Position numbers and translations under genes: made by a program. 57,811 bases of DNA from Escherichia phage vB_EcoS_AVIO78A, in sequence record MZ726797.1. One strand, 5' to 3'. Of the stretch, positions 37,947-46,632 are shown piece by piece. Under the pieces are notes generated by a model that saw only the letters and a program-made list of their open reading frames with translations, was not told the DNA's origin and made no database searches. Numbering within the stretch: position 1 is the first letter of the stretch; every line of letters begins with the position of its first letter.

Positions 37947-38159
37947 ATCTTCAACCGACACCTCAATCCACGATGCGGGAACCGGATATTCAGTCCGGTA
38001 CATGAACAAGGATGTTCCTATCAACCCGTGTGGATCTGTTTTAATCCCTCGCATGTTCAACAACGGAAAAAACTGTTCACGCGTTTGTGGTAATCGTGCA
38101 AAGCGTCCTGTCGGGCGTTTAGCAGGATCCATAGGGTTGAATTCAACGATTGTGGACAT
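37926..38159 (-). CDS. hypothetical protein
   Basis: ORF track. Confidence 0.4.
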   Translation of the reverse strand: MSTIVEFNPMDPAKRPTGRFARLPQTREQFFPLLNMRGIKTDPHGLIGTSLFMYRTEYPVPASWIEVSVEDLLKTVY

Positions 38160-38664
38160 AACAATAACTCCTGTACGCTTGTCGTTTTATTTTCTGATAG
38201 TCGGAAACTTTTACAGATCTCGTTTTACATTCACCGATATGATGTGGATCGAAAACAAACATCACCTGTGAACGGTCATTTCCTCCTGCTGGTAACCCGG
38301 TGTCAGGATCTACAAACGCTATACGACCTTTAAATACCCATAGTTCTGAACAATGTGTCAGTGCTTTATGAAACCAGTCTGCAGACGTCATAGCGTTCAC
38401 AAGTAATAACGAACCAGTTCCCTGATGGATGGTGGTTATTATTTTATTAACCCAGGGAGACGGATCGCTGTATGGTGGGTTGCACCAGATGAACCCACCA
38501 CCATTACTTTGAACAATCGAATGCCAGTCTTTATTCAGACTATCGGTGATAAACAACGAACATTTAGCGTTAGAACCATCGGTACACACATCAAGAACAA
38601 GTGGGAATTCACGAGAAACGTTATCAATAAAATCCCACGGTGTTTCCCAGTTGTCTTTAGCCAT
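38143..38664 (-). CDS. DNA N6-adenine methyltransferase (phage Dam-type)
   Basis: ORF 38143..38991 trimmed to ATG 38664 (MAKDNWETPWDF); NPPY catalytic motif. Confidence 0.7.
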   Translation of the reverse strand: MAKDNWETPWDFIDNVSREFPLVLDVCTDGSNAKCSLFITDSLNKDWHSIVQSNGGGFIWCNPPYSDPSPWVNKIITTIHQGTGSLLLVNAMTSADWFHKALTHCSELWVFKGRIAFVDPDTGLPAGGNDRSQVMFVFDPHHIGECKTRSVKVSDYQKIKRQAYRSYCYVHNR

Positions 38665-39010
38665 GTTCCGGTACGCTCTCCACGCTGTAATAAACGGGGA
38701 TACCCAGACGTTCAGCTTCTGCAATTTCTGCCAGCGTACCAGATGAACGACGATAATCAGGAAGCACCAGAACAGCGTCACAGCGGCGCATAACTTCAAG
38801 CGTGCCTGACAGGTAGTATTCAGGTTGTATATTGCGTAAACCGCCGTCAAAGTCCCACAATTCGGTGTTCTTGTGAGGAATAACCGGGAACCATCCCGGA
38901 CGTTGTAAAGCCAGTCGTTTACCTGCCTGTTCAGCGCGTGACACGTTACGGGATGTTTTAAGCGCACAATCAGCACGATAAGGCCCGGCAATGTAACAGA
39001 GTTTAATCAT
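38657..39010 (-). CDS. nucleoside 2-deoxyribosyltransferase-like protein (DUF4406-like)
   Basis: ORF 38657..39040 trimmed to ATG 39010; MIKLCYIAGPY...CDAVLVLP...SSGTLAEIAEAERLGIPV. Confidence 0.5.
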   Translation of the reverse strand: MIKLCYIAGPYRADCALKTSRNVSRAEQAGKRLALQRPGWFPVIPHKNTELWDFDGGLRNIQPEYYLSGTLEVMRRCDAVLVLPDYRRSSGTLAEIAEAERLGIPVYYSVESVPEHG

Positions 39011-39350
39011 GGTTGTTTTCCTGCGTTTGTAAGAACACAATCATTGCGGCACGGAGTGGGTTAGCGTGAATAACACATGAGTCATCCGCATAAATCATTT
39101 CTGTCGCATCACCAGTAATTCCATCAATAGCAGCATTGTCAGGTAAAGCGATCCATGATGAATCTGTTGAAACAATACTAATTTTATTTTCAATAATAAT
39201 CGGCATTGCATCAGTCGGATTAGTGGTATATTTGAAACCGCCCCGTGACCAACAACCTTGTATATCTTTATCGTCAGCATGAACACCGTAAATAACTTTC
39301 AAAACAAGGCGATCAATATCTCTATCATTCATCTTACTGTAATCAGTCAT
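39003..39350 (-). CDS. hypothetical protein
   Basis: ORF track. Confidence 0.45.
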   Translation of the reverse strand: MTDYSKMNDRDIDRLVLKVIYGVHADDKDIQGCWSRGGFKYTTNPTDAMPIIIENKISIVSTDSSWIALPDNAAIDGITGDATEMIYADDSCVIHANPLRAAMIVFLQTQENNHD

Positions 39351-39879
39351 GACGATTCATCCCTTCTAACATGTCCCAGATAAGCGCAACACGACGCGGG
39401 TCAGTGCTGATAGTGTGTAGAGTTTCACATCCGTAATGCCACCCCCAGCGAACGGATAATTCTGACAGCAGATAACCACGGGAATTAGCCAGTTCAGCCA
39501 GTTCACCGGGTTTAAATGTCGTTGTATTAGGTTCTGTAAGAACACGAGTACCACAGATAGCGTCACTGATGCGCCACGGTTTCATCAGGTCATCAACTTT
39601 GTACCAGTTACTGATACTGATTTCAGATGTTCCCCAGCGTACAGCCAGTTTCAGACGTTCCTGACGGGCCGGGAACATTGGCATTTGTGGTAAACGCAGT
39701 TGGATCTGTTCTGCAGGTTCGAACATATCATCGTCTGTTAAACGAAATTCACCACGGTCATCAATATAAAAACCACGGGAACGACCATCACGGGTGAACC
39801 CATCAACACGGTTGTAAATTTTACCAGGAGTAAAGACACCAATCGGTGAACCAGCTACAAATTTGTGTGAAGTATGCAT
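39343..39879 (-). CDS. hypothetical protein
   Basis: ORF track. Confidence 0.45.
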   Translation of the reverse strand: MHTSHKFVAGSPIGVFTPGKIYNRVDGFTRDGRSRGFYIDDRGEFRLTDDDMFEPAEQIQLRLPQMPMFPARQERLKLAVRWGTSEISISNWYKVDDLMKPWRISDAICGTRVLTEPNTTTFKPGELAELANSRGYLLSELSVRWGWHYGCETLHTISTDPRRVALIWDMLEGMNRHD

Positions 39880-39918: not shown

Positions 39919-41775
39919 TTACCGAAGTGGTGCAACGAGTTTTTCAGCTTCTTTGATGTAAAAATCATAATTTAGCGTTGCCCGGTTAAAACGTTTCATG
40001 TCGTTGCACTCCGTGGTCAACCAACCTTTGCACACTGACATACGGCGCTCAGGCGCGTCAGGGTTCAGTTTCAGTGATTTTGCCAGTGGTGGCATGACTT
40101 TTGTCAACGGTGCACCATCTGTACTGACGTAATAACGGGTAATGTTCTGAACCTGTTTATCACCCCATAATAACTTGCTGTTACGCGGTACTTTCGTCAC
40201 CAACATAAAATCGTGAATGTCTTCGTGTGATGTTATAAAATCACGAATGTCTTTATTGTGTACCAGTGCTGCTTCAGCAGCTTTTGCGACAACCTGCATA
40301 CTGTGGTTTTGATGCCAACCCAGATCAACACTGTGACAATAAGCGCCTTTACGTTTAACCTTCTTACCACCTTCGTAAACAGCGATATAATTATTTACAT
40401 CGCGAATAAACATCACGTCATAAATCGCTTCTTCAAGCTGGAGTCTGGTTAATTTTTCCCACGCGTGACGAACCTGTTCTACTTGTTCGGTAAACACTCG
40501 TGGCACGTAAACCGTAAGACCATCTGTGTTAGCCTGGATCATGGACAAACCAGGGATTTTCAGAAGTTCTTCAGCCAACATACACAAAAGTAATTGTCCG
40601 TTAATCGTAATAGCCATTGTATAAGCAGGATCGTAGAACGGGCTGTATACGTTATTACTGTCACCATACACACCGTTTAACGCTAGTTTTAACATTGCAT
40701 TTTCTGGTGTACCTTTCGGGTAACTGGAACGCATGTCATAAACATTTTTATAAATGGTGCAAAATTGTTTACCCAGATGTGCTGGATAAAGTTCATTACT
40801 GATCGCAAGGTTCGGGTAAAAACTGGCAACGTCCAGATCGATGATCACATAATTTTCAGTGGACCTGATAGTTTGAGACTCAATAGACCCGTGGATACCA
40901 CCCGTACCAAAATCAAACGAGAACCCGTTAATGTCTGCGCTTAAATCCGTGAATACACCTTTTGTTTCAGTGATGACCTGTTGGCGTAACCAGTTAAGAA
41001 CACGATTAAATTCAGGCTGTTCAAAACGGACATAAGGGAAAATCACACTGTTCAATGCGATTGACGGTCTGTGCGTCTGTCGTGGTTTTCTACTACCCGG
41101 TTCGAAACATTGAATACCTGATTTTTCAAGTTCCATAATGAAATAGTCTTTACCGATTTTCGTGTCATTATGGTTCATGAAATTACGACCGTATTTAGCA
41201 GAAAGTTCACGACGAAAATCTATCAGCTTTTTACTGTGTTTATAAAACATCAAAGTCGCTTTTAAATCGTGTATCAGATATTGACGAAGCGTATCAATTT
41301 GAGAATCGGTTAAATAAGTCCCTGGCGTAAATGGGAGGTCTTCAATGTTTTCCATTCTCATGTTGAATTCAAGTGTTTTCAGACTTGTTCGTTTTGCCTG
41401 ATTGTCGAAATGATGAATTTTATATAAATCAAGCTGGGGAACTATCCAGTCTTTTTCCCACACCATATGAGCAAAACGATTTTCATCACCAGCGTTAATT
41501 ATCGAATCACCTTTTTTATAAATGTCTGCGTTGGTGATATACATGATATTGTTCAAAATAGAATGCTGAACAGGATAGTCGTAACCCAGATTGTTATAAC
41601 CAACTTCTTCATCACGATGTTCACGTAAATATTCTGTGAACAGGTAAAAAGCCTGACGATCATCGCGACGATGTGAAATCTCAAAAATATAAGGTGTTTC
41701 AGTTAACGCGTGAATAGCACCGAACAGAAAAACATTAGGATAGTTTTCAATATCGTGAACGTAAGCATCTGACAT
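39919..41775 (-). CDS. DNA polymerase (compact, family-B-like motifs)
   Basis: DLDVASFYPN (motif A-like), KLALNGVYGDS (motif B-like), ANTDGL (motif C-like), N-terminal DxE and YxxxD exonuclease-like motifs. Confidence 0.55.
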   Translation of the reverse strand: MSDAYVHDIENYPNVFLFGAIHALTETPYIFEISHRRDDRQAFYLFTEYLREHRDEEVGYNNLGYDYPVQHSILNNIMYITNADIYKKGDSIINAGDENRFAHMVWEKDWIVPQLDLYKIHHFDNQAKRTSLKTLEFNMRMENIEDLPFTPGTYLTDSQIDTLRQYLIHDLKATLMFYKHSKKLIDFRRELSAKYGRNFMNHNDTKIGKDYFIMELEKSGIQCFEPGSRKPRQTHRPSIALNSVIFPYVRFEQPEFNRVLNWLRQQVITETKGVFTDLSADINGFSFDFGTGGIHGSIESQTIRSTENYVIIDLDVASFYPNLAISNELYPAHLGKQFCTIYKNVYDMRSSYPKGTPENAMLKLALNGVYGDSNNVYSPFYDPAYTMAITINGQLLLCMLAEELLKIPGLSMIQANTDGLTVYVPRVFTEQVEQVRHAWEKLTRLQLEEAIYDVMFIRDVNNYIAVYEGGKKVKRKGAYCHSVDLGWHQNHSMQVVAKAAEAALVHNKDIRDFITSHEDIHDFMLVTKVPRNSKLLWGDKQVQNITRYYVSTDGAPLTKVMPPLAKSLKLNPDAPERRMSVCKGWLTTECNDMKRFNRATLNYDFYIKEAEKLVAPLR

Positions 41776-41855
41776 AATAAAATCCTGATAAGTAAATGGG
41801 GCACTATGGCCCCATGTCTGTTTAAAGCGGTATGTCGTCCCAGTTCCAGTAACTA

Positions 41856-42887
41856 TCAGTAACCGTTACCGTTGAGAAAATTCGGGGCCGGGGTGGTCAT
41901 TACCATATAACCGTTAGCGATCAGTTGTTCATCGTTCCAACCTTGCGCAATAAACTGTTCGTAAGTTGCACCACCTGCTTTTTCAGTCATTACTTTTACA
42001 GGTGCTGCCGCTGGTGTAGGCGTTGCTACAGGTGCTGCCGCTGGTGTAGGCGTTGCTACAGGTGCTGCCGCTGGTGTAGGCGTTGCTACAGGTGCTGCCG
42101 CTGGTGTAGGCGCTGCTACAGGTGCTGCCGCTGGTGTAGGCGTTGCTACAGGTGCTGCCGCTGGTGTAGGCGTTGCTACAGGTGCTGCCGCTGGTGTAGG
42201 CGTTGCTACAGGTGCTGCCGCTGGTGTAGGCGCTGCTACAGGTGCTGCCGCTGGTGTAGGCGCTGCTACAGGTGCTGCCGCTGGTGTTACGCCGATCGGA
42301 CGTGCACCTTCAGGCATTGCAGGAGCAGCACCGAACACAGATGCAGGAGCCGGACCAGAAATGATTTCTTCACCCGCATAAAGCAATTGCGCCATTTCCA
42401 TGTTGATATATACGCCAGCCTGATTACCTGTACGACCGTTTGCAACAGATGATCCGCTGATACGGTAGTAATAACCTTTTTTCGCCAGATTTTTATCAAT
42501 AACTGGCTGGTACGCTGCGTTATAAACCGGACACGCATCAATAGCCACGTTGCGTGAGAAACCAATTACCCAGTGACCAGCATAACCAGTTTTACTCGCA
42601 TGTTTCGGATCGTCACCGTTAATAATTTTCCATGCGAAAGTGGGTTGTTGTGGTTCGCCGTTCACATAGTGTGAGTTAGCCACTCGCATAATCGCCTGGA
42701 ATACCGCACCCAGTTCACCTTGTTCTTCCCACCAGTTCGCCGCTGTTTTAGGAAACGCCAGGCCAACCCACCAGTTGTGTTTTTCAGGTGCTAACGGTTT
42801 ATTTTCGTGGTCATGAGTGTTGATATCGAAAAAAGAACCGCCAACCAGACGACCAACCGGAGTTACAAAAGATTCTTTCTGTGCCAT
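41856..42887 (-). CDS. ssDNA-binding protein-like (DUF2815-like N-domain) with Pro/Ala repeat linker and conserved C-terminal motif
   Basis: VGRL...FPK pattern; PAAAPVA[TA]PT x ~9.5; C-terminal TYEQFIAQGWNDEQL. Confidence 0.5.
   Translation of the reverse strand: MAQKESFVTPVGRLVGGSFFDINTHDHENKPLAPEKHNWWVGLAFPKTAANWWEEQGELGAVFQAIMRVANSHYVNGEPQQPTFAWKIINGDDPKHASKTGYAGHWVIGFSRNVAIDACPVYNAAYQPVIDKNLAKKGYYYRISGSSVANGRTGNQAGVYINMEMAQLLYAGEEIISGPAPASVFGAAPAMPEGARPIGVTPAAAPVAAPTPAAAPVAAPTPAAAPVATPTPAAAPVATPTPAAAPVATPTPAAAPVAAPTPAAAPVATPTPAAAPVATPTPAAAPVATPTPAAAPVKVMTEKAGGATYEQFIAQGWNDEQLIANGYMVMTTPAPNFLNGNGY
41996..42288. repeat. tandem 30-bp repeat (~9.5 copies) encoding the Pro/Ala linker
   Basis: GGTGCTGCCGCTGGTGTAGGCG[T/C]TGCTACA repeated contiguously. 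Confidence 0.9.
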
Positions 42888-42902
42888 GTTATTAACCTTC
42901 TT

Positions 42903-44048
42903 TTAAAGTGGACGTGCGCCAGTCGGCATCGTCACGGGTTTGTTAAAAACAGATTCTGCCAGTGTGCTGTGACCTTTACGCGGGTCACTGTCAGGTACTA
43001 AAACTGGCTGACCTTCTGGTTTTGTCGTACACATGTCAACAAGTGCCGGAGGCAGTGATTTTTCCAGTGTTGACAACGGTTTTAATTTACGTTCGTACAA
43101 TGTTTCAGGGTTTACACCAAACATGGGTGCAGCACCGATCAGTTTTCCTTCGTCCGTAAGCTGACGTCGGGTTTGCTTTGTTGCAAGTTTAAAACCCGGT
43201 AAAGCCTTACCCATGCGAACAAAATGTAACCCCTGAGTATGTAACGCTGTTTTTGCTTCAGAAGAACGCGTATACAGTTCTTCAAGAAGTGCCAGACGAC
43301 GCGCTACTTCTTCTGGCGTAAGTGATGGTGGTGCATCAAGAACAGTAGCCAATTCTAAAACCCTCTCATACATCGCCGGACACATACCACGCGCCGGACA
43401 GTAATGACAATGACTACCAACATTTAACGGTGCGTCTGGTTTATGTGCTTCGTTAAACCCGTGTTTAAATCGTTCAGCCCATTCCATCAATGTTGTCCGG
43501 TTAAACTCCCACCGTCTTACAAGTCCGAGTGGGTGATAAGCCCGTGGCTGAACAATTGTGAACACAACGCGCTTAACAGTATCAATACAACGTTGGTCCA
43601 GTGCGTAATAGACCCCCTGTGAATTATCAACTGCTTCAACTGCGATATGACCGTATTTATAATCCCATACGTAAAGCGTATCAGTATTAAAATCATACCA
43701 GCGATAATCACAGGTTCCGTACTGACCGGGTAACAACCAGTCAATGTGAATGCGAACTTCTGAAAACAGCGGATCAAGTTTCGCACCAACTGAAAGAACA
43801 TCTGCTATAAAGTCATCCGCGTAAATATGCATGTCTTCAGTAACCTGAACACCGTTAGGAGCAAGACACGGCATTAATGGCGGTTTGCCTTTAATCTTCT
43901 GTTCTAACACCCAGTGCCCGGCTGTACCTTCTTCAGCACTGGGTGATGATGGTTCTACATAGTCAATCCGCTGTGACAGTTGAACGCTACCCGGACAAGC
44001 TAACCAACGTTTTGATCCACTGGCACTAAAGGTAGCGTGACTGGTCAT
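42903..44048 (-). CDS. PD-(D/E)XK-type nuclease (DUF2800/Cas4-like, putative)
   Basis: N-terminal SASGSKRWLACPGS pattern; C-terminal Cys cluster; adjacent to SSB-like gene. Confidence 0.5.
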   Translation of the reverse strand: MTSHATFSASGSKRWLACPGSVQLSQRIDYVEPSSPSAEEGTAGHWVLEQKIKGKPPLMPCLAPNGVQVTEDMHIYADDFIADVLSVGAKLDPLFSEVRIHIDWLLPGQYGTCDYRWYDFNTDTLYVWDYKYGHIAVEAVDNSQGVYYALDQRCIDTVKRVVFTIVQPRAYHPLGLVRRWEFNRTTLMEWAERFKHGFNEAHKPDAPLNVGSHCHYCPARGMCPAMYERVLELATVLDAPPSLTPEEVARRLALLEELYTRSSEAKTALHTQGLHFVRMGKALPGFKLATKQTRRQLTDEGKLIGAAPMFGVNPETLYERKLKPLSTLEKSLPPALVDMCTTKPEGQPVLVPDSDPRKGHSTLAESVFNKPVTMPTGARPL

Positions 44049-44800
44049 CAGAATGCTCCACCCATTTGTTTAACAGATTCAGCCTGACCAACAATGTTTT
44101 CAGCATCAGCCGGGGCCGCGTTAATGCGTTCAATCAGTTCGATGATAGATTTCAGTTTTACCGGGTCGTCAATCTGCATCACGTTCTGAGTTTCATACAG
44201 TCCCATGATTCGCTGACTTAATGGCGCAGCACGGTCACCCGTAATTTGTCCAAACATCTGCATCAGTGCTGACTGAAGAACCTGTGTGTTATAAACTTTA
44301 GCCGGATCCGTGGTTACAGGTTGCTCGACAGGCGCGACTGGTGCAGCCGGTGCTGCTGGTACAACTGGAGCTACCGGAGCGGCAGGAACCGCTGGAGCAG
44401 GATCAACAGGTGCTACATAACCTGGTGCAAGTTCTGCAGGTCCGGTATAACGCCCTGCTTCAACTGCTTCAGCGATAAGTTCACGTTTAACACCGTCAAC
44501 AAACGCTTCATCCAGTTTTTTCTTTTGACGCCACAGACCATCACCTTTGTTCAGGGATTTACTGTCAGTGTGGATACGCGGATCATGACGCAAACCCCAT
44601 TTGTCGAACTCTTCAGTACTGGTTTCGTTATCGTCAACATCTTCAGTTGGTGCAGATACAACAGGCAGTGATTCAGCAACGACAGAAACAATTTCTTCTT
44701 TCGTAATCGGTGCGACACTGTTACCAGCAATCGCTGCTGCCAGATTGTTGATCGCAGTTTCCAGACCCGGAGCAGTTACAAGTAATTTAACTTCGAACAT
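44048..44800 (-). CDS. hypothetical protein with Pro/Ala-rich linker
   Basis: ORF track; first gene after tandem promoters. Confidence 0.5.
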   Translation of the reverse strand: MFEVKLLVTAPGLETAINNLAAAIAGNSVAPITKEEIVSVVAESLPVVSAPTEDVDDNETSTEEFDKWGLRHDPRIHTDSKSLNKGDGLWRQKKKLDEAFVDGVKRELIAEAVEAGRYTGPAELAPGYVAPVDPAPAVPAAPVAPVVPAAPAAPVAPVEQPVTTDPAKVYNTQVLQSALMQMFGQITGDRAAPLSQRIMGLYETQNVMQIDDPVKLKSIIELIERINAAPADAENIVGQAESVKQMGGAF

Positions 44801-44832: not shown

Positions 44833-44876
44833 ACTTTAAAAGGTGTTGTGCAATCTGTCAAGAATTATTTTACACT
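44833..44876 (-). promoter_or_regulatory. conserved promoter (-35 TTGACA, -10 TAAAGT), proximal of tandem pair
   Basis: motif family member. Confidence 0.6.
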
Positions 44877-44894
44877 CGCCTTTCGTTGATGCAG

Positions 44895-44939
44895 ATGTTA
44901 GAGGAATAAGTTGCAATGCGTCAAGAACTATTTTAAACT
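44895..44939 (-). promoter_or_regulatory. conserved promoter (-35 TTGACG, -10 TAACAT), distal of tandem pair
   Basis: motif family member. Confidence 0.55.
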
Positions 44940-44970: not shown

Positions 44971-46632
44971 ATGAAAGCTCGTTATTATCAGACTGAAGCT
45001 ATCAATAACGTATGTCAGGCATGGTCAAGCGGTGCTGACGACGTGATTCTTGTGCTTCCCACGGGGGCAGGAAAAACGTTCTGTATGTCTGAACTGGTAA
45101 AAACAAGAGACGGTGTAAAAGTCATCCAGGCACACCGTAAAGAACTGGTTAGTCAAATCGCAATGGCTGTTGCTCGCCAGGGGTTAGCACACAGATTTAT
45201 AGCGCAAAAAGATACTGTTAAGTTTGCAACTAATCAGCAGATGAAAACGCTTGGTTACAGTACCTATTCCCCCGGTGCTGACATCGTTATTACCAGTTCA
45301 CAAACGTTAAGAACAAAACAGTACGAACGATGGTACAACGACGTGTCTCTTGTGTTTAGCGACGAAGCGCATCACCTGGTGCGTGGCACACAGTGGGGAG
45401 ACTGCCGGGAAAAATTCCCTAACGCTAAAGGTCTGGGTGTTACAGCTACACCGATCCGTGCTGACGGTAAAGGCTTGGGTCGTCATGCGTCAGGTTACGC
45501 AGATCAGATGATCATTGGTCCGTCAATGCGTGAGTTAATCAGTCAACAACATCTGGCCGATTATCGTCTGATTATGGCTGAAACAGACCTGGAATTAACT
45601 GCAGAAATGATTTCCCATACAACGGGTGATTACAAACCATCTGCGTTAAAAAAAGCGATGGAAGATTCAAACATTGTTGGTGATACCGTCAGTACGTGGA
45701 AAACGTACGCAGACGGTTTGCTCACTGTTGTGTTTACGTGTGATGTGGATTCTGCTGAAGCACTGGCACAAGAATTTCGCGATGCGGGTATTCCAGCAGA
45801 GGCGATCAGCTCACGAAACAGCAATCAGGAACGAGCGGATATCCTGGAACGTTTTGAACGACGTAAAACACTCGTGCTGTGTAACAACGATTTATTCGGT
45901 GAAGGATACGATTGTCCGGCAATGGAATGTGCAGTAATGGACCGTCCCACAGAATCTTACTCTTTGTTTGTACAACAAATGGGTCGACCATTGCGTTTCA
46001 AACCGGGTAAAAAAGCACTGATTATTGATAAAGTCGGTAATGTTCGTCGATTTCTGACCCGTGGTTTTCCACTTCCCGATCAGCATTACAACTGGTCTTT
46101 AGATGACCGCGACCGTCGTTCGTCAAACAGCAGTGGGAACAGTAATACAACATGCACAAACAAGGGTGATCCTGATAACGGTATCCCACCGTGTCTGAAG
46201 CCTTATCCGTCTGGTCTTCCGTGCTGCCCGTATTGTGGTCATGTTCCTGAAAAAGCCGAACGCTCAGGCCCGGATCGTGTAGAAGGTAATTTACGTGAAC
46301 TGACACCTGAAGAACTGGAAGAATTACGCCGGGCAGTTGTGATAATCGACCGTGATCCTGTTGCAGTAAAAGAACAAATGTTAAACGCTGGTGCACCCCC
46401 TGTTGCAGCTTACAGTGCAATGAAAAACATTCAGGCAATGAACGATGCACAGCGTAAGTTACGCAGCATGATCACCACATGGGCAGGTATTCAACGTGAT
46501 AAAGGTATACCCGTTGATGACGCTTACAAGATGTTTTACAGGGTGTTTGGTGTTGATGTACTTAGTGCACAGGGCTTACGTACTCGTGAAGCTAATGAAC
46601 TCGCCGCAAGGGTTGCAAGTTCATTAATCTGA
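44971..46632 (+). CDS. superfamily 2 helicase with internal zinc ribbon
   Basis: Walker A PTGAGKT, DEAH-like FSDEAHH, CCPYCGH. Confidence 0.7.
   Translation: MKARYYQTEAINNVCQAWSSGADDVILVLPTGAGKTFCMSELVKTRDGVKVIQAHRKELVSQIAMAVARQGLAHRFIAQKDTVKFATNQQMKTLGYSTYSPGADIVITSSQTLRTKQYERWYNDVSLVFSDEAHHLVRGTQWGDCREKFPNAKGLGVTATPIRADGKGLGRHASGYADQMIIGPSMRELISQQHLADYRLIMAETDLELTAEMISHTTGDYKPSALKKAMEDSNIVGDTVSTWKTYADGLLTVVFTCDVDSAEALAQEFRDAGIPAEAISSRNSNQERADILERFERRKTLVLCNNDLFGEGYDCPAMECAVMDRPTESYSLFVQQMGRPLRFKPGKKALIIDKVGNVRRFLTRGFPLPDQHYNWSLDDRDRRSSNSSGNSNTTCTNKGDPDNGIPPCLKPYPSGLPCCPYCGHVPEKAERSGPDRVEGNLRELTPEELEELRRAVVIIDRDPVAVKEQMLNAGAPPVAAYSAMKNIQAMNDAQRKLRSMITTWAGIQRDKGIPVDDAYKMFYRVFGVDVLSAQGLRTREANELAARVASSLI

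Follow-up and report, generated by a model that had tools for sequence, protein, structure and literature searches.

A compact, divergent family B DNA polymerase is the probable replicase in a leftward replication-recombination operon of Escherichia phage vB_EcoS_AVIO78A

Results

Organization of the locus

This study concerns the DNA of Escherichia phage vB_EcoS_AVIO78A (sequence record MZ726797.1; hereafter AVIO78A), analyzed as a single stretch of 57,811 nucleotides (nt) that we call the window, and within it the interval 39919-44800. According to the list of open reading frames (ORFs), this interval is exactly filled by four adjoining ORFs on the minus strand, which encode a 250-residue protein with a Pro/Ala linker, a 381-residue PD-(D/E)XK-like nuclease, a 343-residue single-stranded DNA-binding protein (SSB), and a 618-residue DNA polymerase (cf. 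Table 1). All four had been listed in a preliminary description of the interval, made from the nucleotide sequence without database searches, and all four were found where it had placed them. The interval is the leftward replication-recombination operon of AVIO78A, and with a probability that we put at about 0.82 the 618-residue protein is the replicative polymerase of the phage, a compact and divergent RNA/DNA-primed family B DNA polymerase (PolB) of the lineage found in crAss-like phages. AVIO78A itself is a phage of the 9NA/Sasha group and a relative of Salmonella phage 9NA: the interval is 96-97% identical at the nucleotide level to the corresponding regions of phages Sasha, Sergei, Solent, PJ16, and the BASEL phage Bas82, and 77-80% identical to those of 9NA and Klebsiella phage Carvaje. 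In the BASEL paper, AVIO78A is classed in Nonanavirus, and such phages are described as sensitive to restriction systems.

Table 1. Genes and other features in and around the replication cassette of AVIO78A, with the copies of the 28-nt promoter-like element; positions are those of the window
Feature	Position	Strand	Matched family or method
DNA polymerase, 618 aa: DEDDy 3'-5' exonuclease, then family B palm/fingers/thumb	39919..41775	-	
GC-rich hairpin between SSB and polymerase genes, ATGGGGCC-ATAG-TGCCCCAT, terminator- or attenuator-like	41796..41815		terminator-like scan
gp2.5-like ssDNA-binding/annealing protein, 343 aa	41856..42887	-	
30-bp tandem repeat in SSB gene	41997..42287		Tandem Repeats Finder
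DUF2800 / Cas4-like PD-(D/E)XK exonuclease, 381 aa	42903..44048	-	PF10926, PF12705, phrog_69
First gene of the cassette, 250 aa, no assigned function	44048..44800	-	phrog_27827
Two tandem 28-nt elements, likely cassette promoters	44833..44939	-	promoter scan, direct repeat
SF2 helicase, 553 aa, divergently transcribed	44971..46632	+	ResIII, Helicase_C, DEAD
Stand-alone DEDDh-type 3'-5' exonuclease, 168 aa	46674..47180	+	PF16473, RNase_T
Primase-helicase, 784 aa	47842..50196	+	PF22763, D5_N, DUF5906, TIGR01613, PDB
28-nt element copies	1443, 3599, 5042, 11079, 13302, 14908, 18662, 26785, 44849, 44912	+	motif search
28-nt element copy	50211	-	motif search

Assignment of the 618-residue protein to family B

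The profile searches that the preliminary description had proposed as a check on its polymerase (PF00136, PF03175, and PF00476) were run and gave zero matches, no Pfam family being found at E < 0.1, so that they cannot decide between families; among the NCBIfam models, that of Pol II left traces of 13 bits only, to be set against cut-offs of 570-1435. The Vibrio and crAss-like homologues of the polymerase were likewise without a Pfam match, and the silence of the curated models is a gap in their sensitivity, not evidence against family B. Compared with the PDB as a single sequence, the polymerase matched archaeal PolBs and E. coli Pol II weakly (E = 0.002), and its motifs A, B, and C fell on their counterparts in these alignments. 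A profile of its family retrieved the KOD, 9°N, and Pfu enzymes at E-values of 5e-7 to 1e-4, followed by Pol alpha, the African swine fever virus polymerase, RB69, Pol II, and Pol epsilon, and no family A or phi29-type chain was matched in this search. Alignment by hhalign gave a probability of 89% for E. coli Pol II (E = 2.4e-6, 160 columns), 0.3% for phi29 DNA polymerase, and 0.08% for the family A polymerase (PolA) of a Vibrio phage.

Structure prediction, the second check that had been suggested, yielded a highly confident AlphaFold2 model (predicted local distance difference test [pLDDT] 95.6, predicted template modeling score [pTM] 0.91), in which an exonuclease domain is followed by palm, fingers, and thumb. 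Its 50 best Foldseek matches in the PDB were all of family B (E of ~1e-14, template modeling score of ~0.5), and its nearest neighbors are solved PolBs; alignments with PolA structures extended over ~170-208 residues only and correspond to the DEDD exonuclease fold that the proteins share. Profile, hhalign, and Foldseek results thus agree on a compact family B-like replicase and not a family A enzyme, as initially proposed, and neither of the outcomes named beforehand as contradicting that proposal, a family A assignment or spurious motif matches, emerged from the profile and structure searches.

Motifs and their conservation

The sequence motifs on which the family B proposal had originally been built (DLDVASFYPN, KLALNGVYG, and ANTDGL, with exonuclease-like motifs at the N terminus) are present in the polymerase and invariant or nearly so among 50 aligned homologues of 43-54% identity. 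The exonuclease motifs read D8-I-E10 (Exo I), N62-LGY-D66 (Exo II), and Y166-LIH-D170 (Exo III), each being kept in 49-50 of the 50 proteins. Motif A (residues 313-322) contains the segment D315-VAS-F-Y320-P-N, the aligned counterpart of LDFRSLYPS in KOD and 9°N; neither D315 nor Y320 varies, and an additional, near-invariant D313 stands two residues ahead of the catalytic D315. Motif B (residues 363-371) aligns with KILANSxYG, and its K363 and G371 are invariant. In motif C (residues 415-420, within Q414-A-N416-T-D418-G), the second aspartate, D418, is retained in register with the second aspartate of the archaeal DTD(G/S), and the position of the first is occupied by asparagine (N416) in every one of the 50 homologues. 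The KxY motif (KKxY) is lacking, the corresponding position reading V-N461-N-Y463, with the tyrosine kept and the lysines gone. Furthermore, the protein carries G292-G-I-H, which is conserved to the same degree, and the GGxxG segment is in register with that of archaeal and bacterial PolBs.

Altogether, D8, E10, D66, Y166, D170, D313, D315, Y320, K363, N367, G371, N416, T417, D418, and G419 are invariant or conserved in at least 90% of the homologues, and the motif matches are therefore under selection and not due to chance. Catalysis is predicted to depend on D315 of motif A, Y320 as the steric gate, K363 and N367 of motif B, and D418 of motif C.

Distribution of the polymerase and its exchange for a family A enzyme

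A word-indexed homology search gave near-identical proteins only, and the diversity of the family was assessed with an exhaustive HMMER search of 1.84 billion representatives, which returned 4870 clusters (counted at 50% identity) at E ≤ 1e-3 and 2072 at E ≤ 1e-30. By tblastn, homologues of the polymerase were found in 968 of 50,697 phage records, their hosts and groups including Enterococcus, Rheinheimera (Barbavirus), Pseudomonas, Vibrio, Klebsiella, Escherichia, Leuconostoc, and crAss-like phages. The replicase had at first been described as unusual, a view that these numbers do not bear out, the more so as it already figures as a PolB in the literature. The labels attached to the homologues vary ('DNA polymerase', 'DNA polymerase B region', 'PolB elongation subunit', 'DNA polymerase II', 'DNA polymerase I', 'ribonuclease H-like'). 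Many members of the family are 680-950 residues long and match the query in two to three stretches split near query residues ~270-280, a pattern that points to a site of repeated insertion, which might accommodate an intein, a homing endonuclease, or an additional domain; the AVIO78A protein is without such an insertion.

Yutin et al. (2024, PMC11348598) report that Sashavirus, Nonanavirus, Gorganvirus, and related Vibrio phages ('Clade 3') encode a PolB and that a single in-place PolB-to-PolA swap took place in this clade; the compact architecture, the motif variants, and the accessory genes are not discussed in those parts of its main text considered here. The polymerase is thus already known at the level of family and clade. 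The published swap is reproduced in our data by two Vibrio phages: 1.089.O encodes a PolB 51% identical to that of AVIO78A, after which come homologues of the SSB, of the DUF2800 nuclease, and of the divergent helicase; in its near-identical sister 1.237.B, this slot is occupied by an 820-residue PF00476 PolA among the same neighbors. The cassette accepts a polymerase of either family. The preliminary description had also held that nuclease/SSB cassettes usually accompany a family A polymerase, which is half right: such a cassette can house either, but in this clade PolB is basal and PolA is the exception introduced by the swap. The order nuclease-SSB-PolB, together with a divergent superfamily 2 (SF2) helicase, recurs in Vibrio 1.089.O, Proteus Gorganvirus, and Klebsiella KpV52, and a metagenome contig combines DUF2800, PolB, and the divergent helicase with a middle gene of no detectable similarity to the SSB.

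The SSB and the nuclease

The 343-residue protein belongs with T7 gp2.5-like/DUF2815 proteins, having the gp2.5-type OB fold with its characteristic helix, and this bears out its earlier description as SSB-like. The OB-fold domain (residues 1 to ~175) is joined by a disordered (PTPAAAPVAx)n linker to a C-terminal motif that is conserved. The Pro/Ala/Thr/Val linker is encoded by a 30-bp repeat present in 9.7 copies at 98% identity, which is annotated as a 'direct tandem repeat region' in Sasha and Sergei. BLAST alignments break at this repeat, and Sasha-group phages thus appear to differ in its copy number. In the gp2.5-like SSBs of ten phages, a Pro/Ala-rich linker of highly variable length was followed by a common C-terminal YTxxQLxAxGWxxEQLxA (residues 297-335 in AVIO78A). 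This motif may be a tethered docking peptide that takes the place of the acidic tail of T7 gp2.5.

The 381-residue protein matches Pfam DUF2800 (PF10926) at 3.7e-57, PDDEXK_1 (PF12705) at 8e-7, and the 'exonuclease' family phrog_69 at 9e-89. The catalytic motifs of a PD-(D/E)XK-like nuclease, as it had been named, are present (D114, D129-Y-K131, and Q144xxxY148), and its cysteines C18 and C214xxC217x5C223 form the 1+3 four-cysteine pattern of the Cas4 type. We thus consider it a Cas4/RecB-like PD-(D/E)XK nuclease with a predicted nuclease activity and a putative Fe-S site. In the Vibrio relatives, a second, truncated DUF2800 ORF lies 5' of the cassette (45366-45878 in 1.089.O, with an equivalent in L006).

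The first gene of the cassette

The 250-residue protein is composed of an N-terminal segment, a conserved motif (residues ~65-95), a Pro/Ala/Val linker (residues ~119-165), and a helical C-terminal part; the Pro/Ala tracts noticed at the outset are real and occur both here and in the SSB. The motif, D-x2-G-x3-D-x-R-I-H-x6-N-x2-D-x2-W, comprises ~30 residues and recurs in the positionally equivalent genes, dissimilar in other respects, of Proteus Gorganvirus (where the product is called 'recombinase'), Klebsiella Jedunavirus KpV52, and the metagenome contig (L009:4245-4913, L014:3299-4282, and L002:3970-4752), all of which have low-complexity linkers. Searches of Pfam, NCBIfam, the PDB, and PHROGs indicated no function (phrog_27827 being itself a family of unknown function), and a scan for Walker A motifs found none. 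The GenBank name 'helicase' is therefore not supported by any of these searches, and the other names given to first-gene proteins ('TonB receptor', 'recombinase', 'hypothetical protein') conflict with it and with each other, no domain or Walker motif backing any of them. By tblastn, the protein was found in 22 phage records only, the protein search retrieved close relatives only, and a profile of the DxRIH motif retrieved only five short proteins; at the sequence level, the protein is confined to 9NA/Sasha/Klebsiella relatives.

Plus-strand partners and neighboring genes

The divergently transcribed helicase contains the SF2 domains ResIII (1.5e-22), Helicase_C (1e-10), and DEAD (3e-10), and a divergent SF2 helicase adjoins the cassette also in Vibrio, Proteus, and Klebsiella phages and in the metagenome contig. 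It is followed by the stand-alone exonuclease, which matches PF16473 (Rv2179c-like) at 7e-48 and RNase_T at 6e-5. In the Vibrio relatives, a 551-residue 'ribonuclease H-like' protein (43108-44763 in 1.089.O, with an equivalent in L006) contains a domain homologous to this DEDDh exonuclease. The primase-helicase, which had been expected on the other strand, is present there, outside the interval 39919-44800, and matches PF22763 (8.5e-22), D5_N (PF08706; 2e-12), DUF5906 (PF19263; 3e-11), and TIGR01613 (5e-55). Its residues 2-310 match PDB chains named 'DNA primase' or 'Primase' at 2e-34 to 1e-30, which we take to be the NrS-1 primase-polymerase (PrimPol; the 6a9w group). The domains follow each other in the order NrS-1-like PrimPol, helix-bundle domain, D5_N, and P4-family superfamily 3 (SF3) helicase.

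On the 3' side of the polymerase, the same leftward block (38143-39879, minus strand) encodes a 178-residue protein of phrog_19205 with no assigned function, a NinX-like protein, a DUF7768/DUF4406 nucleoside 2-deoxyribosyltransferase-like protein, and a DNA methyltransferase. A 282-residue ORF at 38143-38991 (minus strand) overlaps its neighbor, and it is probably over-extended, since the methyltransferase gene annotated there in Bas82 has only 522 bp. A tRNA scan found none.

A repeated promoter-like element

A 28-nt element, TG[CT]AATNNGTCAAGAATTATTTTA[AC]A.., occurs in the window in 11 copies with up to three mismatches, against 0 expected, and all of them are intergenic. The opposite strand of each copy reads as an A/T-rich tract with a TTGAC(A/G) -35 box and, 17-18 nt on, a TAnnnT -10 box. 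Two copies, 63 bp apart, lie in the 170-bp divergent region between the cassette and the SF2 helicase gene, with minus-strand -10 boxes TAAAGT or TAACAT. Most copies are situated just 5' of the first gene of a block of genes of the same direction, the fit being loose at 13302 and 50211. The element is kept in Bas82 and absent from the Vibrio, Proteus, and Klebsiella relatives. It is probably a conserved phage promoter, two copies of which head the replication cassette. In the promoter and terminator scans, totals did not exceed those expected from shuffled sequence, and only the repeated 28-nt element is statistically meaningful. With regard to the hairpin between the SSB and polymerase genes, terminators are annotated in Sasha and Sergei approximately under the matching region.

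Discussion

A model of replication in AVIO78A

The roles and protein contacts proposed here are deduced from the identities, folds, motif conservation, and gene order described above. The NrS-1-like PrimPol/SF3 helicase would unwind the fork and lay primers, which the PolB would extend with proofreading, while the gp2.5-like SSB would coat single-stranded DNA and recruit partners through the C-terminal motif on its flexible Pro/Ala tether. Recombination-dependent replication and the formation of concatemers for headful packaging might be supported by the Cas4-like nuclease together with annealing by the SSB.

Several points weigh against the 618-residue protein being the replicase in such a scheme: (i) its activity as a polymerase is predicted from residue conservation, while motif C carries an asparagine and the KxY lysines are missing; (ii) the curated models of Pfam and NCBIfam are silent, as described above; (iii) neither a clamp nor a clamp loader nor any further processivity factor was identified; (iv) the PrimPol partner could itself synthesize DNA; (v) the recombination role suggested for the nuclease and the SSB comes from knowledge of their families; and (vi) we found no biochemical characterization of this PolB lineage in the literature. 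The DNA polymerase of Enterococcus phage IME199 was considered as a biochemical precedent and rejected, as it is phi29-like and unrelated to this lineage.

An improbable, though not negligible, alternative is that the protein, while truly a PolB, is not the main replicase; most of the DNA would then be made by the NrS-1-like PrimPol or host Pol III, and the PolB would serve in repair, in gap filling, or in recombination-dependent synthesis alongside the nuclease and annealase. The polymerase gene does sit within a nuclease/annealase block, the PrimPol domain matches PDB primase chains taken to be those of NrS-1 at ~1e-30, the NrS-1 enzyme polymerizes DNA itself, and the lack of a detectable clamp or other processivity factor would fit an auxiliary enzyme, as would the bacterial homologue Pol II, which is described in the literature as a repair enzyme. 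Against this stand the retention of the polymerase slot across very different phage groups, with exchange only for a PolA that is a full replicase, the strict conservation of the proofreading residues, and the great abundance of the family in phages that have primase and helicase genes of their own; moreover, this is the sole DNA polymerase annotated within the portion of the Bas82 annotation covered.

That the enzyme is a protein-primed or primer-independent PolB of the phi29 type is very improbable. Its compact size and missing N-terminal domain are typical of that group, but hhalign gave phi29 DNA polymerase hardly any probability and the profile matches contained no phi29-like chain. With 48 residues from motif A to motif B and 55 from motif B to motif C, there is no room for TPR1 and TPR2 insertions. 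No terminal-protein-like gene was seen in or near the cassette, a PrimPol-helicase is encoded, and the database record of the relative Bas82 is circular. Phage 9NA, for its part, reportedly packages its DNA by a headful mechanism from a pac site. In addition, the 633-residue 9NA homologue falls into the PolBmain cluster and not into pPolB (Kazlauskas et al. 2020, PMC7544198, Table S2).

It is scarcely credible that the polymerase domain is catalytically dead, with the protein serving as an exonuclease or a scaffold. Motif C reads NTDG for DTDS and the KxY position NNY, and inactivated PolB paralogues have been described in archaea. N416, however, is invariant and not degenerate, and D315, Y320, K363, N367, and D418 are invariant in the 50 homologues and present in the crAss-like PolB. 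The two aspartates that act as metal ligands in the standard PolB mechanism, that of motif A and the second of motif C, are both in place here; no other polymerase is annotated in the covered portion of Bas82. Finally, a family A polymerase with chance family B motifs is refuted, as PF00476 gave no match, hhalign placed the Vibrio PolA at 0.08%, PolA structures aligned through the exonuclease fold only, and all best profile and Foldseek matches were PolBs.

A broader picture, more doubtful than not, may also be drawn. The lineage (9NA/Sasha, crAss-like, Jedunavirus, Barbavirus, and other phages) would represent the smallest proofreading PolB primed by nucleic acid, devoid of an N-terminal domain and with minimal fingers, and its active site would be rewired by the asparagine of motif C, the extra D313, and the loss of the KxY lysines. 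It would work without a clamp, drawing its processivity from the tethered C-terminal motif of the SSB and/or the DxRIH-motif protein, and would extend DNA primers made by the NrS-1-like PrimPol.

A very common phage replicase, encoded in ~2% of deposited phage genomes, including those of crAss-like phages, is thus invisible to the curated PolB, PolB_2, and PolA models. Because these models miss the family, the replicase is often labeled 'DNA polymerase' or 'hypothetical protein' and sometimes mislabeled 'DNA polymerase I' or 'ribonuclease H-like'. The nuclease/SSB/helicase/primase chassis is independent of the polymerase family, consistent with the published in-place swaps. What retains interest is the active-site variant, a possible clamp-independent replisome, and the first-gene protein, and a mesophilic PolB of 618 residues with proofreading, encoded by a phage that is easily grown on E. 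coli, would make a convenient model enzyme, which is an opportunity and not a discovery.

Comparison with known systems

Both by sequence profile and by structure, the AVIO78A enzyme is matched best by the KOD, 9°N, and Pfu polymerases and E. coli Pol II, with motifs A, B, and C in register, but these are ~150 residues longer, possess an N-terminal domain and longer fingers, and have DTDS or DTDG in motif C together with KKxY, where AVIO78A has NTDG and NNY. Exo I begins at residue 8, leaving no separate domain ahead of the exonuclease, whereas the alignment offsets place Exo I of KOD near residue 141; the same offsets (D66 of Exo II corresponding to D215, and D315 of motif A to D404) leave ~130-150 N-terminal residues of KOD unmatched, although the second half of that domain might be retained within residues 180-290 of the AVIO78A protein. 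Since motifs A and B are 48 residues apart, compared with 83 in KOD, the fingers must be very short, and the distance between motifs B and C equals that in KOD, without a TPR2-like insertion.

A closer counterpart is the 647-residue PolB of crAss-like phage cr4_1, which aligns end to end at 30% identity (E = 8e-78) and has in common with the AVIO78A enzyme the N-terminal Exo I, DxDVASxYP, KLALNG, QANTDG, and N-x-Y in place of KxY, although AVIO78A is a siphovirus of Enterobacteria and the host phage of the cr4_1 enzyme is a podovirus of Crassvirales. The crAss-like PolBs were described as a divergent branch of the EpsilonN-like clade within PolBmain, whose motif C and KxY depart profoundly from the usual forms; the first motif C aspartate was noted to be lost as well in another group, PolB_SITDG (Kazlauskas et al. 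2020, PMC7544198). Pairwise similarity and common motif variants suggest that the AVIO78A protein belongs to the crAss-like subgroup. It is also the Clade 3 PolB of Yutin et al. (2024), the AVIO78A group lying within the genera named there, and we see no substantive difference between the two.

The T7 replisome is built differently: (i) its polymerase, gp5, is a PolA, whereas that of AVIO78A is of family B; (ii) gp4 joins a Toprim to a DnaB-like domain, and the AVIO78A primase-helicase an AEP PrimPol to an SF3 helicase; (iii) gp6 is a FEN-like nuclease, and that of AVIO78A is Cas4/RecB-like; and (iv) gp2.5 ends in an acidic tail, in whose place the AVIO78A SSB carries a Pro/Ala tether with a GW-containing motif.

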